A DNA stretch of 64,000 nt from a virus (lineage: Duplodnaviria > Caudoviricetes). Of the stretch, positions 11,890-59,495 are shown in pieces. The notes beneath the pieces are model-generated. The model was not told the DNA's origin and ran no database searches. It was given only the letters and a program-made list of their open reading frames with translations. The position numbers and the translations under genes are program-made. Location of the stretch: the IMG/VR virus record IMGVR_UViG_3300020598_000119, one strand, 5' to 3'. How positions within the stretch are numbered: position 1 is the first letter of the stretch; every line of letters starts with the position of its first letter.

Positions 11890-14376
<2,487 letters not shown>

Positions 14377-14391
14377 TTAAATATCCCAGAT

Positions 14392-14420
14392 ATTGTGACG
14401 ATAATAATGTGAGGCGTCAA
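14392..14420 (-). promoter_or_regulatory. putative gyrB promoter
   Basis: TTGACG-N17-CACAAT on the minus strand. Confidence 0.6.
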
Positions 14421-14478
14421 CAATATTGCAGGAAAAATGCGGCTGCGATTTATTTAAATGAAATCGAAAAAATATCGT

Positions 14479-14507
14479 TTGACAAGTGCTAGCCGACCAT
14501 TCATAAA
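14479..14507 (+). promoter_or_regulatory. putative promoter of the leader-tRNA operon
   Basis: TTGACA-N17-CATAAA preceded by an A/T-rich UP-like tract. Confidence 0.65.
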
Positions 14508-14558
14508 GGGGACAAGCGATTGGGCGGATGCCCGTCCATTCAACTTTGAGAGAGTACA

Positions 14559-14633
14559 ATGCGCAACACGAGAACGACATGGACATGTTGGAGAACCTAC
14601 AGGGGCTTCCCTGGAGGCGGAGACGTCTGTTGA
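14559..14633 (+). CDS. leader peptide MRNTRTTWTCWRTYRGFPGGGDVC (putative attenuator of the tRNA array)
   Basis: GAGAGAG RBS. Codons 4-12 are ACG AGA ACG ACA TGG ACA TGT TGG AGA, codon 15 is AGG and codon 24 is TGT, all cognate to downstream tRNAs. Followed by a terminator. Confidence 0.85.
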   Translation: MRNTRTTWTCWRTYRGFPGGGDVC

Positions 14634-14661
14634 CTCGTTGAGCGCAGTTACCGCAACCAAG

Positions 14662-14694
14662 AAGCCTCGAATGAAAATTCGGGGCTTTTATTTT
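14662..14694 (+). terminator. attenuator terminator upstream of the first tRNA
   Basis: 11-bp stem AAGCCTCGAAT-GAAA-ATTCGGGGCTT followed by TTATTTT, 16 nt before tRNA-Trp. Confidence 0.88.
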
Positions 14695-14710
14695 GTCTGG
14701 AATTCAGTTT

Positions 14711-14785
14711 AGGGGTGTAGCCAAGTGGTTAAGGCAGCGGTCTCCAAAACCGCCATCGGGGGTTCGAGTCCCTCCACCCCTGCCA
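14711..14785 (+). tRNA. tRNA-Trp (CCA)
   Basis: AGGGGTG/CACCCCT acceptor stem, GCGGT-CTCCAAA-ACCGC anticodon arm, GGTTCGAGTCC T arm, G73, encoded CCA. Confidence 0.96.
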
Positions 14786-14797
14786 CCGAAAGATAAG

Positions 14798-14965
14798 ATG
14801 ATGGTAAATAGACTTTTGGAGTTGATGCTTGAAGGAGAAACAGATAACAGTATTCTTCAGGATGCGTGGGATAAAATGCAGGAGCAAAAGAGGCTTGCCC
14901 TAGAGGAAATTGGTCAGAGAATACAGAATGGAGAGCCTCTCACTGTTGAGTTTGACTTGGATTGA
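14798..14965 (+). CDS. small acidic hypothetical protein (55 aa) inside the tRNA array
   Basis: ORF fills the Trp-Thr spacer almost exactly; RBS is weak. Confidence 0.55.
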   Translation: MMVNRLLELMLEGETDNSILQDAWDKMQEQKRLALEEIGQRIQNGEPLTVEFDLD

Positions 14966-14978
14966 TACAAGTAATTCT

Positions 14979-15054
14979 GCCAAATTAGCTCAGTTGGTAG
15001 AGCAGCGCTTTCGTAAAGCGAAGGTCGGGAGTTCGAGTCTCTTATTTGGCACCA
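14979..15054 (+). tRNA. tRNA-Thr (CGT)
   Basis: GCCAAAT/ATTTGGC acceptor stem, CGCT-TTCGTAA-AGCG, GTTCGAGTC, CCA. Confidence 0.95.
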
Positions 15055-15056
15055 GA

Positions 15057-15166
15057 GGTCCGCTATAAAATGCGGATTCCGCGCAGCCTAATTAGTTGCG
15101 CCATGGCTTTTCGGGCGGTTGAGCCGGATAATCAACTGCCCCGCGAATATAAGCGTCGTGAGACGC
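15057..15166 (+). ncRNA. putative structured RNA (four hairpins) between two tRNA-Thr genes
   Basis: Stems TCCGC/GCGGA, GCGCAGC/GTTGCGC, GGGCGGTTGA/TCAACTGCCC and GCGTC-GTGA-GACGC. Confidence 0.45.
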
Positions 15167-15171
15167 GATGT

Positions 15172-15247
15172 GCCGTTGTAGCTCAGCTGGTAGAGCGCCT
15201 GATTTGTAATCAGGATGTCACGGGTTCGATCCCTGTCGGCGGCACCA
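15172..15247 (+). tRNA. tRNA-Thr (TGT)
   Basis: GCCGTTG/CGGCGGC acceptor stem, CCTGA-TTTGTAA-TCAGG, GGTTCGATCCC, CCA. Confidence 0.96.
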
Positions 15248-15326
15248 TAAAATCTGGCGTGCGGTTGTTAAAGGATTAAAAGCCTTTCCCCGCCAGTAGG
15301 AATAAAACTGGTAGCAATGCCAGTAC

Positions 15327-15400
15327 GGCCTGGTGGCGGAGTGGTTACGCGGCGGACTGCAAATCCGCTTACCCGAGTTCGATTCTCGGTCAGGCCTCCA
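15327..15400 (+). tRNA. tRNA-Cys (GCA)
   Basis: GGCCTGG/TCAGGCC acceptor stem, GCGGA-CTGCAAA-TCCGC, U73, CCA. Confidence 0.96.
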
Positions 15401-15430
15401 AATAAATATCTAGTGCATCTGATGCACTTT

Positions 15431-15506
15431 GGTCCCGTAGCTCAGTGGAAAGAGCAGGAGCCTTCTAAGCTCAAGGTCGTAGGTTCGAATCCTACCGGGA
15501 TCGCCA
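15431..15506 (+). tRNA. tRNA-Arg (TCT)
   Basis: GGTCCCG/CGGGATC acceptor stem, GAGC-CTTCTAA-GCTC, A20 identity base, CCA. Confidence 0.95.
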
Positions 15507-15536
15507 CCGTTCATACTTTGGGAAATCCAAAGTATT

Positions 15537-15611
15537 GTCTCCGTAGCTCAGTGGAAGAGCAATTTCCTCCTAAGAAATAGGTCGCAGGTTCGAATCCTGC
15601 CGGAGACGCCA
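15537..15611 (+). tRNA. tRNA-Arg (CCT)
   Basis: GTCTCCG/CGGAGAC acceptor stem, ATTTC-CTCCTAA-GAAAT, GGTTCGAATCC, CCA. Confidence 0.96.
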
Positions 15612-15778
15612 TCAAAATCGTGTCGTGATCGCTCATAATCTCGAAGCCATCGATGCGATCATCGAGCACAGCAAGATCAGGGCGTACGGAGCCTCTGACT
15701 ACCGCCTTAAGCTCGTTCACGATCACGAAGCAAGGCAACCCTATGACCTCGTCATTCATCAGCAGCGTTTCCTGCAGG

Positions 15779-16903
15779 TTAAGTCCCTTCTATCCAGTCG
15801 GAAAAATCTTTGACCAATGGCTCCAACAGCGGCGCGACGTCCATTTTCGAGGCCATCGATTTGTATGCAGGAACCTCCAGCAACGCACGATGGCCAACTT
15901 CTGCGCCGATCAGGTTGCCAAGAACCGCTGCAGTGGAGTCGCTATCTCCCGAATGGTTCACAGCAATTTCGAATTTTCGCTCCAAGGGCACGTCTGCAAG
16001 GGCGGCCAAAATAGCAATGGCAAGGCATTCATGTCCTACCCACCCGCCACCGAGCACCTCAACGTGTTCAGGAGCGATATCAGAGATCGGGGCGATCTTC
16101 ATTACCGAAAGAATGAGCGTTCGCATCAGGCCAGCGTTCTCTACGCCCCTAAGGTATTCCTCAAGCCCAAAGACAGCTGCCTTCAGGCTTTCCCCCTGAG
16201 CGAGCCTATTGACCAGCCAACTTAGCGCCCCAGCAGGAATATAGCCCATTGGGTGCCCATGGGTCATAGCGGCCGCCTTGGCTCCGAGCATGAAACAGTG
16301 CGCGGGATCGGAAAGATTCAGGAAACCTATGGGGGCAACCCGCATGACGCCTCCGCACCCCATGGAGTCGTTTAGCGGGCGCTCAATGGTGCCGATAGCA
16401 CCAGCCTTGCAGGCCGACAGGCAGGTCATTCCAGGTGCTCTGTTGACCCTCATCAAATGGGAATGCCCTAACCGCCCAACAGGCACCTGCGAAGGGTTAG
16501 ATTGTTGGGTTATATACCAGTCCAGATAGGCGTCACGAATACAATCCAATGAGCGCTCTGCTGTGAGGCGATCTCCCCATCGTTGATGAGCCACCAAAAG
16601 GCCCTCCGCAGTAAACATGGTCATTTGCGTGTCGTCACTAACCAGACAACGCTCCCAGGTTGGGAACACGAGTGAAATCGCACGCATAGAGACACCACTC
16701 GGGCCAAATTTTTCCCGAATGGTAGAAATGGAATCAAACTCAACAGCGTAACCAAGCGCATCACCAACCGCCCCCGCATAAAGGCAACCGTAAATCCGGT
16801 CATTCAATGAAAGAGGATGAGGTAGTGCGGCCTCATCCTGCGGAGCAACTTCAATGCTGTCATCTTTCTTGGACAGGAAGATTGATTTCAGTTTTTTGAT
16901 CAC
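15779..16903 (-). CDS. ADP-ribosylglycohydrolase (DraG/ARH family)
   Basis: GDALG..VEF, SDDTQMT, GCGGVMR, THGHP and GDSDST motifs; GGAGG RBS before GTG 16903. Confidence 0.92.
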   Translation of the reverse strand: MIKKLKSIFLSKKDDSIEVAPQDEAALPHPLSLNDRIYGCLYAGAVGDALGYAVEFDSISTIREKFGPSGVSMRAISLVFPTWERCLVSDDTQMTMFTAEGLLVAHQRWGDRLTAERSLDCIRDAYLDWYITQQSNPSQVPVGRLGHSHLMRVNRAPGMTCLSACKAGAIGTIERPLNDSMGCGGVMRVAPIGFLNLSDPAHCFMLGAKAAAMTHGHPMGYIPAGALSWLVNRLAQGESLKAAVFGLEEYLRGVENAGLMRTLILSVMKIAPISDIAPEHVEVLGGGWVGHECLAIAILAALADVPLERKFEIAVNHSGDSDSTAAVLGNLIGAEVGHRALLEVPAYKSMASKMDVAPLLEPLVKDFSDWIEGT

Positions 16904-17047
16904 GTGACGCCTCCGATCGTGCGTCAATTTTTACAGATTATTTCAGATGGATCAAATTGCTCATTGAACTATCTGAACAAATATGAGAAAGGAATTAGGT
17001 CTCCGTATTGCTGCGGCTGCTGAACCCATCAATTCTGGAGAACTATC

Positions 17048-18493
17048 ATGAAAATCACTGGCACTTTGCCTGCGAACAGTCGCGTCCGTGTTTCCGGTCA
17101 CGACGTTCACACTATCACTTCGTATAACGAGCCTGAACGACACAAGAGGCTGGCGCTTGATGATCTGTCGAATGCCATTCCGACGCATGATGCGTTTGAA
17201 CAAGCCGCAGCGGCAGTCAAAAGGATTGTGACCACACCGGACTTTCACGCTGGCAAGCCAGTTCCGGTCGGCGTAACCATGTCCATTGAAGGCGCTGCGA
17301 TGCCACATGTCATCGGCAATGACATTGGATGCGGCATGCGAATGGTCGTACTTAACGACGTCACCGAGGACGATCTGGCCGTCAGCGCGCTGGATGGCCA
17401 TTTGCGTCATGTCCATTTCCAAGGCAGTAGAAACATTGCGCTCTCTGGAAGACAGCGCCACGCAATCCTCAAGGAAGGCATCCCAGGGCTGCTGGAAGCG
17501 CTGGCCGGGGACGCGAAGGGGCTATTGGGCAACCTAGAACTAACAGCCGCGTGGAGAGACGTCAGCAGGACCTGTGATGATGGCTTCTTTCCGTCTGTAG
17601 ACATCGATAACGGCTTTCTCGAATACGGAAACCTCACTGACGGATACCGTTACGATGCCATCCTAGGCTCAATCGGTGGAGGAAATCACTTCGTCGAACT
17701 CGGTGTCATCGACAAAATCGTAGACAGCACGTTCGCTATGGCTGCTGGCGTAAAAGCTGGTGCCGTCGTCATGGTCGTTCACTCTGGCTCCCTCGATTTT
17801 GGCCAATATGTCGGCTCAACGACGAAAGGAAGAATGCGAGGACTGGCCAGACATGGCGATCAGCGCATCCTTTCTGCAGAGCACCACACAGACGAGCTAC
17901 AGCGCTTCCTCAACGGCCAAGCTAACGCGGTTAATATCGCTTTTGCAAACCGCTTTCTGATCGGCCTAGCGACCATCCATGCGGTCGAGAAGGCACTGGG
18001 GAAGCGAGTGGACGCAAGATTGATCTATGACGCTCCTCACAACGTCATCTGGTCAGATGGTAACACTTACATGCATCGAAAGGGGTCATGTCCAGCACGA
18101 GGCCAAGGCTTCCAGCATGGTTCGCCTTACGAGTGGCTCGGAGAACCCGTCATCCTGCCAGGCTCCATGGGAGACGGAACATGGCTACTAAGAGGGCTTG
18201 GCAATGAGGAGACGCTAAAGTCTGCAGCTCATGGAGCGGGACGACGCCTATCGCGCCAAGAAGCACGAGCCGAGGCCAATCATCCTGCTGACCTCCAGGT
18301 GATTACACCCATCGATCTCAATGCTCCTGAGGTGCGTTGCAGAGCGGATATCGTTCGTGAAATCGTCGGCCGATTGAAGGAAGAATCTCCTGATGCTTAT
18401 CGGCCAATCGAAAATGTTGTCGCTCCAATGGAGGACACTGGAATGGTCAACAAGGTTGCCAAAGTGCGTCCGGTCATCACCGTCAAAGGATGA
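17048..18493 (+). CDS. rtcB: RtcB family RNA 2',3'-cyclic phosphate/5'-OH ligase
   Basis: PDFHAG, NDIGCGM, GGNHFVE, HSGS, PHN, HRKG, PGSMG, SAAHGAGR and EESPDAY motifs. Confidence 0.93.
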   Translation: MKITGTLPANSRVRVSGHDVHTITSYNEPERHKRLALDDLSNAIPTHDAFEQAAAAVKRIVTTPDFHAGKPVPVGVTMSIEGAAMPHVIGNDIGCGMRMVVLNDVTEDDLAVSALDGHLRHVHFQGSRNIALSGRQRHAILKEGIPGLLEALAGDAKGLLGNLELTAAWRDVSRTCDDGFFPSVDIDNGFLEYGNLTDGYRYDAILGSIGGGNHFVELGVIDKIVDSTFAMAAGVKAGAVVMVVHSGSLDFGQYVGSTTKGRMRGLARHGDQRILSAEHHTDELQRFLNGQANAVNIAFANRFLIGLATIHAVEKALGKRVDARLIYDAPHNVIWSDGNTYMHRKGSCPARGQGFQHGSPYEWLGEPVILPGSMGDGTWLLRGLGNEETLKSAAHGAGRRLSRQEARAEANHPADLQVITPIDLNAPEVRCRADIVREIVGRLKEESPDAYRPIENVVAPMEDTGMVNKVAKVRPVITVKG

Positions 18494-49056: not shown

Positions 49057-49110
49057 ATGTCCGTCACTTTCACAGCACTCAAACGAAAACTTTGGCACTG
49101 CGCGTCATAG
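49057..49110 (+). CDS. putative leader peptide MSVTFTALKRKLWHCAS
   Basis: AGGAA RBS; AAA CGA AAA codons; followed by a terminator and then two tRNA-Lys genes. Confidence 0.5.
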   Translation: MSVTFTALKRKLWHCAS

Positions 49111-49138
49111 CGGCAGGATATCCGTTCTCTTTGACCAG

Positions 49139-49164
49139 AGCCGCGATGTCCTCGCGGCTTTTTT
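49139..49164 (+). terminator. intrinsic terminator (possible attenuator)
   Basis: AGCCGCGA-TGTCC-TCGCGGCT plus TTTTT; no long + strand gene lies upstream to explain it. Confidence 0.8.
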
Positions 49165-49286
49165 AATGCGCAGTGCGAAACCATCCCTCGAATTCGATGG
49201 CTTTCGATGCGCTATTTTAGCGCCACGGAACTCCTTTGATTATTGCCTAACTGATTGAAATTTATATCTTTTTTCTATTTTTGTTG

Positions 49287-49315
49287 TTGACTTGGTTTTT
49301 TGGGTATGCCATATA
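49287..49315 (+). promoter_or_regulatory. putative promoter directly before tRNA-Lys
   Basis: TTGACT-N17-CATATA, similar to the rhizobial sigma70 consensus, preceded by a T-rich tract. Confidence 0.65.
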
Positions 49316-49328
49316 TAGATCATCAAAT

Positions 49329-49407
49329 GGACGCGTAGCTGAGTAGGTTTTAGCGGGGGACTTTTAATCCCCGTCTTACGTGGGTTCGAATCCCACCGCG
49401 TTCACCA
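49329..49407 (+). tRNA. tRNA-Lys (TTT), atypical body
   Basis: GGACGCG/CGCGTTC acceptor stem, GGGGA-CTTTTAA-TCCCC, 7-nt variable region, GGTTCGAATCC, CCA. Confidence 0.9.
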
Positions 49408-49411
49408 CTAC

Positions 49412-49488
49412 GGACGTATAGCTCAGTTGGTTAGAGCGGCGGTCTCTTAAACCGCAGGTCCTCGGTTCGAACCCGAGTGCGTCTTCCA
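49412..49488 (+). tRNA. tRNA-Lys (CTT), atypical body
   Basis: GGACGTA/TGCGTCT acceptor stem, GCGGT-CTCTTAA-ACCGC, GGTTCGAACCC, U73, CCA. Confidence 0.9.
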
Positions 49489-57128: not shown

Positions 57129-59495
57129 ATGAGAAAGCTGATTATAACTCGTGGCCAGCCTGGTTCTGGCAAATCCCACGCCCTGAAGGCAATCGGAATG
57201 GAACAATGGACCCTGTCTGCCGACAATATTCGGTCGACAATCGCCGCCCCATTTCTGACGAGTGATGGTCAGATGATCGTCAATCAAGAGGTCTCAAGCC
57301 GCGCTTTCATGATGCTCAATCAATTCGCAGCCGAACGCATGTCGCGAGGCGAAACGCTAGCGATTGACTCGACTCTCATCGAGCGCTCGAACTTGAAGAA
57401 TTTGGCAGAGATGGCGAAGCCTCATCGCTATGAAATCGCCGTGCTCGACATGTCGACCATCCCGCTTGAGTTGACGCTCAAGCAAAACAGCGAGCGGCAG
57501 GAGATCAATCGAGTTTCTGAATTCAAAATTCGCGAGATGCATGCAAAACTATTGGAAGCTGGTATTCGAGATGATGTCGATGACGTCACCATCATTTATG
57601 GCAAGGAAGACGGTAGCCACATTGCTGAGCTGGATGCGTGGCTGCGTGAGCCTGTTCATGACTTCAGCGACCGCTACAAAGGCGTAATTCACATTGGCGA
57701 TCTTCAAGGCTGCTTCACCGTTCTCGCGGGAGAGGGCGGCCCGCTGGCGAATGGATTTGACGACGACTACAAGTATGTCTTTGTAGGCGACCTGCTTGAT
57801 CGTGGCATTGAAAACGGCCAGGTGATGCGCTGGTTCGTCGACAATGCTCTCCACAGGGAAAACGTCACCCTTCTCTGGGGTAATCACGAAGACCATCTCG
57901 ACCGCTGGGCGCGTGGTGAAGATGCCACAAGCGGTGAATTCGCCCTCAGAACGCTTCCGCAGCTTATCAAAGCAGGGATTACTCCTGCAGACGCTGAAGC
58001 CGTCTGTCAGAAGGCTAAGGAATTTCTCCAGTACAATTTTAAGGGTGCTGAGGTTCTCGTTACCCACGCTGGCTTAAGCACATTCCCAGATAAGCCTCAT
58101 CTAATTTCGCTGTATCAATACTCCCATGGCACGGGCTATTGGGAAGATCCGATTGATGAGCAGTTCGAGCGCAACAGCAAGAGAGGCTTCCAAGTTCACG
58201 GACACCGCAATCACGGCAACGTCGATATTGCGGCGACCGAACACTCGTTCAATCTCGAAGACTCAGTCGAACACGGCGGCAATCTGCGAATTTGCACTCT
58301 CGATGGCAATGGCTGGAGCACCAGTGCATTCCGCAACTATGTCTATCGCCCGCTCAAGGAGCGCCTGGCTCTCGAAACCCAGATCACCGAAGTCAGAAAG
58401 GCCCAACGTAAAATGCTGCCTCATTGGATTATCAAGCCTGACGGCAAGTCGACGGAAATGGATGCAAGCCTCCTGAAGTCTATGCACGAGCATGAAGGCG
58501 TTCGTGAAAAGTCGAGCGAACTTTTCCCGCACATATATTCGCTTAATTTCACTAAAAAAGTTTTTTACGACCGTTCATGGGATGATGTTGTCGTGAAGGC
58601 TCGTGGCCTGTTTATTGAACGAGAGACAAACAAAATCGTTTCTCGTGGCTATGAAAAATTTTGGAATGTGGGAGAACGTGAAGAAACTGAACTCACTAAT
58701 CTCGCAAAGAACATGCAATTCCCGATCAGGCTTTACGTGAAATACAATGGCTTCCTTGGAAATATGGGGTACGACGAAAAAACCGACAGTCTCTTCATCG
58801 CCTCAAAATCTATGCCAGAGGGAAAATTTGCAGATTTCTTTAGAGATATTGTCGCACAACAGCTAACCAGCGTTCAGCAGGAAAAAATACGTCGATATCT
58901 TCGCGACACTGAATCGTCGATGACTTGGGAGGTTATTGATCCAGTAAATGACCCACACATGATCGAATATAACGAACCGAAAATAGTTCTGCTCGACATT
59001 ATTCGACGTTCTGCGAATTTTGAGAAAGCAAGCTTTGATGTGGTTGAAGCCGTTGGCCGGAAATTCGGTATCGAAACGAAGAAACTGGCGATGACGTTCC
59101 AGAATGCCGCTGCCTTTGCTGGCTGGTACAGGAAGGCGACCACCGACATGAACTACCGCGTCGGCGGGGAACATGTGGAAGGCTTGGTGATCGAAGACGC
59201 CGCTGGGTATATGACGAAGGTCAAACTGCCATTCTACGCGTTCTGGAAGCAGATGCGTGGCGTGAAGGATCGTATCGTTGCATCCCGCGAAAAAGGGACG
59301 GAATTCACGTGGTCGCATACGCGGAAACCAGACGGTGGGCAGCCTGATGATACTGAGATCGGGCTTGCTCATAGCTTCCGTGATTGGTGTCTGACGCAGG
59401 ACAGCGACACATTGAAGGCCGATATCATTACTCTTCGCAAGGCTTACGAAGCACATCTGGAATTCGGCCAGGACCTATCTGGCCCTTCGCTCTAA
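57129..59495 (+). CDS. polynucleotide kinase / metallophosphatase / T4 Rnl1-like RNA ligase fusion
   Basis: RGQPGSGKS P-loop and SAD; GDLQG, GDLLDRG, GNHE, HAG, GH; ligase ARGLF, KFWN, KYNG, EGLV, KVK. Confidence 0.9.
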   Translation: MRKLIITRGQPGSGKSHALKAIGMEQWTLSADNIRSTIAAPFLTSDGQMIVNQEVSSRAFMMLNQFAAERMSRGETLAIDSTLIERSNLKNLAEMAKPHRYEIAVLDMSTIPLELTLKQNSERQEINRVSEFKIREMHAKLLEAGIRDDVDDVTIIYGKEDGSHIAELDAWLREPVHDFSDRYKGVIHIGDLQGCFTVLAGEGGPLANGFDDDYKYVFVGDLLDRGIENGQVMRWFVDNALHRENVTLLWGNHEDHLDRWARGEDATSGEFALRTLPQLIKAGITPADAEAVCQKAKEFLQYNFKGAEVLVTHAGLSTFPDKPHLISLYQYSHGTGYWEDPIDEQFERNSKRGFQVHGHRNHGNVDIAATEHSFNLEDSVEHGGNLRICTLDGNGWSTSAFRNYVYRPLKERLALETQITEVRKAQRKMLPHWIIKPDGKSTEMDASLLKSMHEHEGVREKSSELFPHIYSLNFTKKVFYDRSWDDVVVKARGLFIERETNKIVSRGYEKFWNVGEREETELTNLAKNMQFPIRLYVKYNGFLGNMGYDEKTDSLFIASKSMPEGKFADFFRDIVAQQLTSVQQEKIRRYLRDTESSMTWEVIDPVNDPHMIEYNEPKIVLLDIIRRSANFEKASFDVVEAVGRKFGIETKKLAMTFQNAAAFAGWYRKATTDMNYRVGGEHVEGLVIEDAAGYMTKVKLPFYAFWKQMRGVKDRIVASREKGTEFTWSHTRKPDGGQPDDTEIGLAHSFRDWCLTQDSDTLKADIITLRKAYEAHLEFGQDLSGPSL

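Follow-up and report, generated by a model that had tools for sequence, protein, structure and literature searches.

A codon-matched leader and terminator upstream of a plasmid-borne tRNA array: a probable transcription attenuator of tRNA genes

Six tRNA genes lie in tandem within 900 nucleotides (nt) of IMG/VR record IMGVR_UViG_3300020598_000119, a stretch of 64,000 nt that was analysed over its whole length and is called the window below. The array stands off the host chromosome and repeats host specificities. Upstream of it, on the same strand, are a predicted promoter, a short open reading frame (ORF) and an intrinsic terminator, and the codons of this leader ORF are to a large extent those read by the tRNAs behind it. 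The initial annotation had listed a promoter, a ribosome binding site, a 24-codon ORF, a terminator and six tRNAs, all of which were borne out at the following positions by the sequence itself, ARAGORN, Rfam and folding:

14479..14507, plus strand: predicted promoter, read in the sequence (-35 TTGACA at 14479-14484, 17-nt spacer, -10 CATAAA at 14502-14507)
14548..14554, plus strand: Shine-Dalgarno-like GAGAGAG, 5 nt upstream of the leader ATG
14559..14633, plus strand: leader ORF of 24 codons and TGA, peptide MRNTRTTWTCWRTYRGFPGGGDVC
14568..14594, plus strand: regulatory run, codons 4-12 (ACG AGA ACG ACA TGG ACA TGT TGG AGA), all read by the array
14560..14645, plus strand: predicted hairpin 1:2, from the minimum free energy fold of the leader transcript in silico
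14601..14608, plus strand: predicted antiterminator strand GGGGCUUC, which pairs with GAAGCCUC (14661-14668) in the terminator 5' arm
14660..14694, plus strand: intrinsic terminator, a 13-bp stem (14660-14672/14677-14689) with a GAAA loop and a U-run to 14694
14711..14785, plus strand: tRNA-Trp (CCA), ARAGORN and Rfam
14979..15054, plus strand: tRNA-Thr (CGT), ARAGORN and Rfam
15172..15247, plus strand: tRNA-Thr (TGT), ARAGORN and Rfam
15327..15400, plus strand: tRNA-Cys (GCA), ARAGORN and Rfam
15431..15506, plus strand: tRNA-Arg (TCT), ARAGORN and Rfam
15537..15611, plus strand: tRNA-Arg (CCT), ARAGORN and Rfam, present only in the window's copy of the array

The leader and its codon match to the array

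The terminator hairpin (14660-14689) is GC-rich, with a predicted energy of -18.4 kcal/mol, and its 5' arm begins 26 nt after the leader stop codon. From the end of the terminator to tRNA-Trp there are 16 nt, which leave no room for a second promoter, and none was found there. A sigma-70 scan did not list the promoter at 14479-14507 because its -10 hexamer ends in A. When positions 13000-17000 were searched with cmscan against Rfam at E <= 1, the six tRNAs were recovered (62-71 bits) together with sub-threshold chance matches on tRNAs and nothing else; the leader thus matched no known RNA leader or riboswitch family, T-box included.

By ordinary wobble rules the array decodes seven codons: TGG, ACG, ACA, TGC, TGT, AGA and AGG. 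The initial annotation had counted 11 array-read codons among 23 in the leader, nine of them consecutive (codons 4-12), and the count holds. Measured against the long ORFs of the element, where the seven codons make up 5.2% of all codons, the probability of finding at least 11 in 23 is 5.7e-9. In an unbiased six-frame scan of the window, the leader run of nine was the longest and the second longest had five, while chance would yield 3.6e-7 runs of at least nine across the six frames of the window. It could be objected that the hypothesis was formed after the fact and that short ORFs are found everywhere, so that an unrelated ORF and terminator happen to precede the array. We consider such a coincidence extremely improbable, given this expectation, the top rank of the run in a scan without bias, the same outcome at three further blocks and on a second replicon, and the retention of the match in nine relatives, as described below.

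Conservation in relatives and recurrence at other tRNA blocks

Relatives of the locus were found via a protein database, in metagenomes and assemblies. They comprise eight loci with gyrB 63-81% identical to that of the window (seven distinct ones, L076 repeating L075) and, in addition, the circular plasmid pRlX5 of Rhizobium leguminosarum TP16 (NZ_CP140867.1; 1.32 Mb), which has 57 tRNA matches. Trp, Thr-CGT, Thr-TGT, Cys and Arg-TCT are retained beside gyrB at all eight loci. A comparison of homologous gyrB-tRNA loci had been proposed at the outset, and in it the ORF and its codon set were kept together with the array; loss of the ORF was not seen. The leader of the nearest genome, G001, is identical to that of the window. 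A TTGAC -35 element lies 59-80 nt upstream of the leader ATG at 8 of 8 loci, with a -10-like hexamer 17 nt on, and most relatives have a purine-rich stretch at the Shine-Dalgarno position. Every leader holds at least one each of ACG, ACA, AGA, TGG and TGY. Directly before tRNA-Trp, each relative has a GC-rich hairpin with a U-run whose sequence is changed on both arms, and the distance from stop codon to terminator arm is 13-35 nt. On pRlX5, a TTGAC -35 element, a leader (MSRTTTTTWTCWRHPRG..) and a terminator likewise stand upstream of Trp/Thr/Thr/Cys/Arg.

The leader peptides of the relatives differ (for example MNLTVRTWTCWRTCR.., MSIRDTIRTTWWCAR.. and MFRTACTTWCWRTCR..). The order of their codons varies and, within the leader family, one TGG is swapped for TGC, which the array also reads; it is therefore the codon set that is preserved rather than the exact peptide. 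Synonymous choice follows the same line, threonine being encoded by ACR in 30 of 36 codons and arginine by AGR in 17 of 26 (against a 14% background) across the eight leaders, although these counts, like any P value taken across the leaders, overstate independence since the relatives are kin. These data bear on the proposal that the ORF has a functional small peptide as its product, or that the transcript is a small RNA that ends at its own terminator. The tRNAs would then come from leaky read-through or from another source, and the codon match would be a side effect of peptide composition. A core T-C-W-R is indeed common to most of the homologous leaders, and the 3' half (G-x-P-G-G-G) is partly kept. 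We nevertheless regard the proposal as very improbable: codon order and the TGG to TGC exchange respect the set rather than the peptide, synonymous choice tracks the array anticodons, no space is left for another promoter, and the leaders of other tRNA blocks are wholly different, each matching its own tRNAs.

These other blocks were examined on contig C2 of the sister genome G001, where the locus is 95% identical to the window. We scanned 240 kb of this contig in six frames for runs of each block's own codon set. At four blocks the top run for the block's own codons in the whole 240 kb sits in a short ORF just upstream, and each of the four leader ORFs is then followed by a strong terminator:

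G001:C2, Leu/Pro/His/Tyr block: leader run ..LPHLPHLLPLPYL.., longest 13, next 8
G001:C2, Ser/Gln block: leader run MFAQSSQQQSSQSSSSSSN.., longest 15, next 7
G001:C2, Trp/Thr/Cys/Arg block: leader run TRTTWTCWR, longest 9, next 5
G001:C2, Asn/Val/Gly/Ala/Met/Ile/Thr block: leader run ..AIAINTINVTANMAGG.., longest 16, next 14

When seven leaders were set against seven codon sets in an enrichment matrix, the true assignment was the best of 5040 permutations. The match extends to isoacceptors. The Trp/Thr/Cys/Arg leader uses ACG/ACA and AGA/AGG; ACC is found in the leader of the block with Thr-GGT, and CGT, CGG and CGA in that of the block with Arg-ACG/CCG. By the run and enrichment measures the match is weaker for the Phe/Arg, Glu/Asp and Lys leaders, and the Lys leader in the window, with two Lys codons, was not significant by the run statistic. 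The design of the tRNA blocks recurs on pRlX5, whose marker protein (see below) is about 49% identical; in 101 kb of this plasmid the longest runs for four codon sets are again found in the cognate leaders. Pattern searches of the sister genome revealed no Trp leader before trpS.

The weaker Lys cassette occupies positions 49057-49488 of the window. Its ORF (49057-49110, MSVTFTALKRKLWHCAS) contains AAA-CGA-AAA and is followed by a terminator (49139-49165), a promoter-like TTGACT-17-CATATA (49287-49315), tRNA-Lys(TTT) and tRNA-Lys(CTT); the pRlX5 homologue of the leader is MIERTLNRLKRKTVHRGCCG. The Lys block of pRlX5 also includes tRNA-Arg(CCT), and the leader of that block holds AGG, a pairing that may be a single hint, at the level of sequence, of co-variation between leader and array. 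A conserved promoter-like motif, aaataatta..tttttgttgTTGAC.., precedes four blocks of G001:C2, downstream of their putative attenuators (at approximately 936.2, 1034.0, 1055.2 and 1063.7 kb) and has its window counterpart at 49270-49315. Between terminator and tttttgttgTTGAC motif there are second small ORFs rich in cognate codons (MRRRRRKKARF.., MPEGDDDSDERE.. and MDDDGNGAAVT..).

tRNA-Arg(CCT) is missing from the array in the nearest genome and in every relative examined. In the G001 array (L001 2388-2470), an insertion of about 80 nt that resembles the 3' half of a tRNA lies between tRNA-Thr(TGT) and tRNA-Cys, at the place of window positions 15248-15326. Array members are therefore gained and lost between close relatives. 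One further feature lies inside the array, between tRNA-Trp and tRNA-Thr(CGT):

14798..14965, plus strand: 55-codon ORF

It is retained, with changes, in G001, and has no detectable similarity to a 52-codon ORF at the equivalent place in L074.

The predicted switch

We folded the nascent transcript after cutting it before the terminator 3' arm and masking a ribosome footprint of 30 nt. In the free leader transcript, segment 1 (the regulatory codons) is paired in one long hairpin with segment 2, which consists of the 3' part of the ORF and the region just beyond, while the terminator (3:4) folds separately. With no ribosome present, the 1:2 hairpin sequesters the antiterminator strand GGGGCUUC. 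The pairing of GGGGCUUC (14601-14608) with GAAGCCUC (14661-14668) was seen only for ribosomes whose A site stood at one of codons 2-11; at codon 12 and later positions, the ribosome covers the strand. In the leaders of the relatives, of the Leu/Pro/His/Tyr block and of the large block, pairing of the 5' arm was likewise strongly stabilised during a stall at the regulatory codons and then fell. On average, cognate strand/arm duplexes were stronger than those with exchanged partners; the permutation value, obtained with related sequences, was about 0.003.

Taken together, we judge it likely that the locus controls tRNA genes by transcription attenuation, mediated by ribosomes on a leader peptide ORF, and the array tRNAs are probably made only when ribosomes decode the leader codons slowly. 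We favor this reading because of the parallel leaders, their replication on a diverged plasmid, the conservation in nine relatives and the antiterminator that depends on ribosome position in silico; the same four lines support the claim of the initial annotation that the leader codons mirror the array and are coupled to the terminator. The sequences show the anatomy, the statistics of the codon match and its conservation, both inside one replicon and from one replicon to another; that the leader is translated, in which direction the switch works and what triggers it physiologically we infer.

In the mechanism that we propose, transcription would begin at the promoter (14479-14507) and a ribosome would translate the 24-codon leader. 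With fast decoding of ACG/ACA, TGG, TGT and AGA, the ribosome would cover or pass GGGGCUUC, the terminator hairpin would form and the transcript would end at the U-run, 16 nt short of tRNA-Trp. Should any one of these codons be read slowly, its charged tRNA being scarce, the ribosome would stall on segment 1 and free GGGGCUUC to pair with the terminator 5' arm, so that no terminator forms and RNA polymerase enters the array. Its output would replenish exactly the limiting tRNAs and thus close a self-limiting loop. The same design would be repeated for other tRNA blocks of the approximately 1.2-Mb megaplasmid, which jointly cover all 20 amino acids. Since the leader would sense the decoding rate of the total tRNA pool, host tRNAs included, amino-acid starvation would act as a trigger too.

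The opposite polarity has to be weighed here. Transcription-translation coupling can suppress terminators generally, and a ribosome close behind the polymerase could block this one; efficient translation of the leader would then be needed for read-through, and the array would be made when its tRNAs are plentiful. In the window and its relatives, however, the stop codon lies upstream of the terminator 5' arm by the distances given above, and a terminating ribosome therefore does not reach the arm. The modelled antiterminator forms only upon stalling at early codons, and a positive feedback on the supply of tRNAs would serve no evident purpose. We hold this polarity to be very improbable.

Several observations nevertheless weigh against the attenuator reading, in addition to the kinship of the leaders compared. 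L077, L078 and the window itself have a weak Shine-Dalgarno sequence. In two relatives the antiterminator forms when no ribosome is present, and support for it is moderate, the cognate duplexes having z-scores against shuffles of only 0 to -3. In an equilibrium fold with the footprint masked, the terminator had a probability of 0.95 at every ribosome position; the switch must therefore be kinetic, as in trp. At four other blocks of G001:C2, a second and strong promoter-like motif (tttttgttgTTGAC) separates the terminator from the tRNAs, so attenuation is not their sole control, whereas the Trp/Thr/Cys/Arg block is without such a motif. Finally, the predicted sensing zone leaves out two leader codons: AGG (codon 15), which is itself part of the antiterminator strand, and the final TGT, close to the stop codon. 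According to the model, a ribosome stalled at one or the other would not give read-through, and sensing of tRNA-Arg(CCT) is thus doubtful. The initial annotation put forward an OR gate over all six tRNAs; the switch proposed here would act as an OR gate over four or five tRNA species.

The carrier replicon and what the leaders may be for

The window is part of a replicon of about 1.2 Mb whose G+C content is 0.50, compared with 0.65 for its host, a rhizobium-like bacterium. In the nearest genome, contig C2 measures 1.19 Mb and has a G+C content of 0.48-0.53 throughout, compared with 0.64-0.66 for host contigs; the 240 kb examined contain 45 tRNA genes in blocks, for all 20 amino acids. No 16S rRNA gene, no RepC of the repABC type and no Pfam match to an HK97-type capsid were found on the 1.19-Mb contig, and the marker protein of the family had no match in a phage collection, results that do not identify the element as a phage or as a cell. 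PLSDB lists its relatives as plasmids. The carrier is a Hyphomicrobiales megaplasmid family that is present in cultured rhizobia.

The family was located by a marker protein that lies between two tRNA blocks; a 208-residue gyrB neighbor was rejected as a marker, being too diverged (17-56% identity). Members include pRlX5 and a contig of a Sinorhizobium meliloti isolate, and more distant relatives are found among Bosea plasmids and in the Methylorubrum extorquens AM1 megaplasmid. The latter has just six tRNA genes, with an Ala/Val/Ala trio that lacks an evident codon-matched leader. Relatives from metagenomes are contigs of 200-823 kb with a G+C content of 0.48-0.67. The element's gyrB is 55-59% identical to that of the host genus and, among 202 genomes of this genus, was found in the nearest genome alone. 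A scan of genome contigs with it returned only ordinary cellular gyrB (<=56% identity), and a DNA search of 41 relatives returned matches to host tRNA genes only.

In the window, gyrB is transcribed divergently from the array. The window also encodes gyrA, an ADP-ribosylglycohydrolase, RtcB, a class Ib ribonucleotide reductase, RecA, MutL, UvrD, PBP1A and a Pnkp-type RNA-repair fusion. The ADP-ribosylglycohydrolase and RtcB genes, mutually divergent, lie directly downstream of the array (15779-18493). The fusion (57129-59495) is a Pnkp-like protein of 788 residues with kinase (AAA_33), phosphoesterase and T4-type RNA ligase domains. The products of these three genes would fit a role in surviving tRNA damage.

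A real attenuator might serve defence, supplying replacement tRNAs after attack by an anticodon nuclease or toxin in concert with the adjacent RNA-repair genes. The position of RtcB and the ADP-ribosylglycohydrolase, the presence of the Pnkp-type kinase/phosphatase/RNA-ligase fusion and the whole tRNA set held in separately gated blocks speak for this purpose. So does pRlX5, which has retained the system although its G+C content is near the usual one of R. leguminosarum (about 61%), where correction of codon usage is not a sufficient reason for it. On the other side, nothing links the locus to a nuclease, and the leader would answer any slow decoding, amino-acid starvation included. By a rough estimate, the element uses ACA and AGA two to four times as often as host DNA does, and a plain supply-and-demand role is therefore possible. 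We put the defensive purpose forward tentatively, as a rather unlikely one. The wider picture of the megaplasmid as a modular stand-by decoding system, with about seven self-gated blocks for all 20 amino acids, each released singly when its share of the host tRNA pool is destroyed or runs short, that would act as a toxin counter-measure together with RtcB and Pnkp-type repair, is in our view similarly speculative.

The attenuator that we favor has well-known counterparts. Leader peptides control enterobacterial amino-acid operons through thrL (Thr and Ile codons), ilvL of ilvGMEDA (Ile, Leu and Val codons), trpL, hisL, leuL and pheL. Like the thrL/ilvL type, the locus combines a promoter, a short ORF with a codon run for several amino acids, alternative 1:2, 2:3 and 3:4 pairings (predicted here) and a terminator, and the proposed polarity, slow decoding leading to read-through, is the same. 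Unlike that type, whose targets are biosynthetic enzymes, the regulated genes here are tRNA genes, and their product would feed back on the very quantity that is sensed. The codon set is moreover chosen at the isoacceptor level (ACR and not ACY, AGR and not CGN), there is no relation by sequence or in Rfam, and the carrier is a Hyphomicrobiales megaplasmid. The attenuator of pheST in Escherichia coli (pheM) and the T-box of Firmicutes likewise couple expression of the translation apparatus, namely aminoacyl-tRNA synthetases, to tRNA charging. However, pheM controls the synthetase for a single amino acid, and the T-box binds uncharged tRNA directly, without an ORF, and has no match at the locus.

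To our knowledge, every textbook case of leader-peptide attenuation controls enzymes that make or charge amino acids. The initial annotation knew of no described example in which tRNA genes are the target, and our full-text literature searches likewise turned up no report of tRNA genes under leader-peptide attenuation. The mechanism is thus a textbook one that appears to act on a new class of regulated genes and to include a direct feedback loop. The nearest functional parallel that we met is the trn operon of Anabaena sp. PCC 7120, a long megaplasmid tRNA array under the protein repressor TrcR (PMC8421152, PMC10272220). It is similarly an accessory, plasmid-borne array, which stays silent under standard conditions and is induced by translational stress, but it forms one long operon instead of separate blocks for different amino acids, and a codon-matched leader peptide is not described for it (PMC8421152, PMC10272220).

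If the favored mechanism is correct, these megaplasmids would place decoding capacity under direct negative feedback, with the resolution of single isoacceptors and separately at each block of a complete tRNA set. Such control would answer how accessory tRNA arrays of plasmids and phages avoid being a burden and yet stay available. The cultured carriers, R. leguminosarum TP16 with pRlX5 and the S. meliloti isolate with its contig, make the mechanism testable by ordinary genetics, and the leaders could serve as natural reporters of the in vivo decoding rate of chosen codons.

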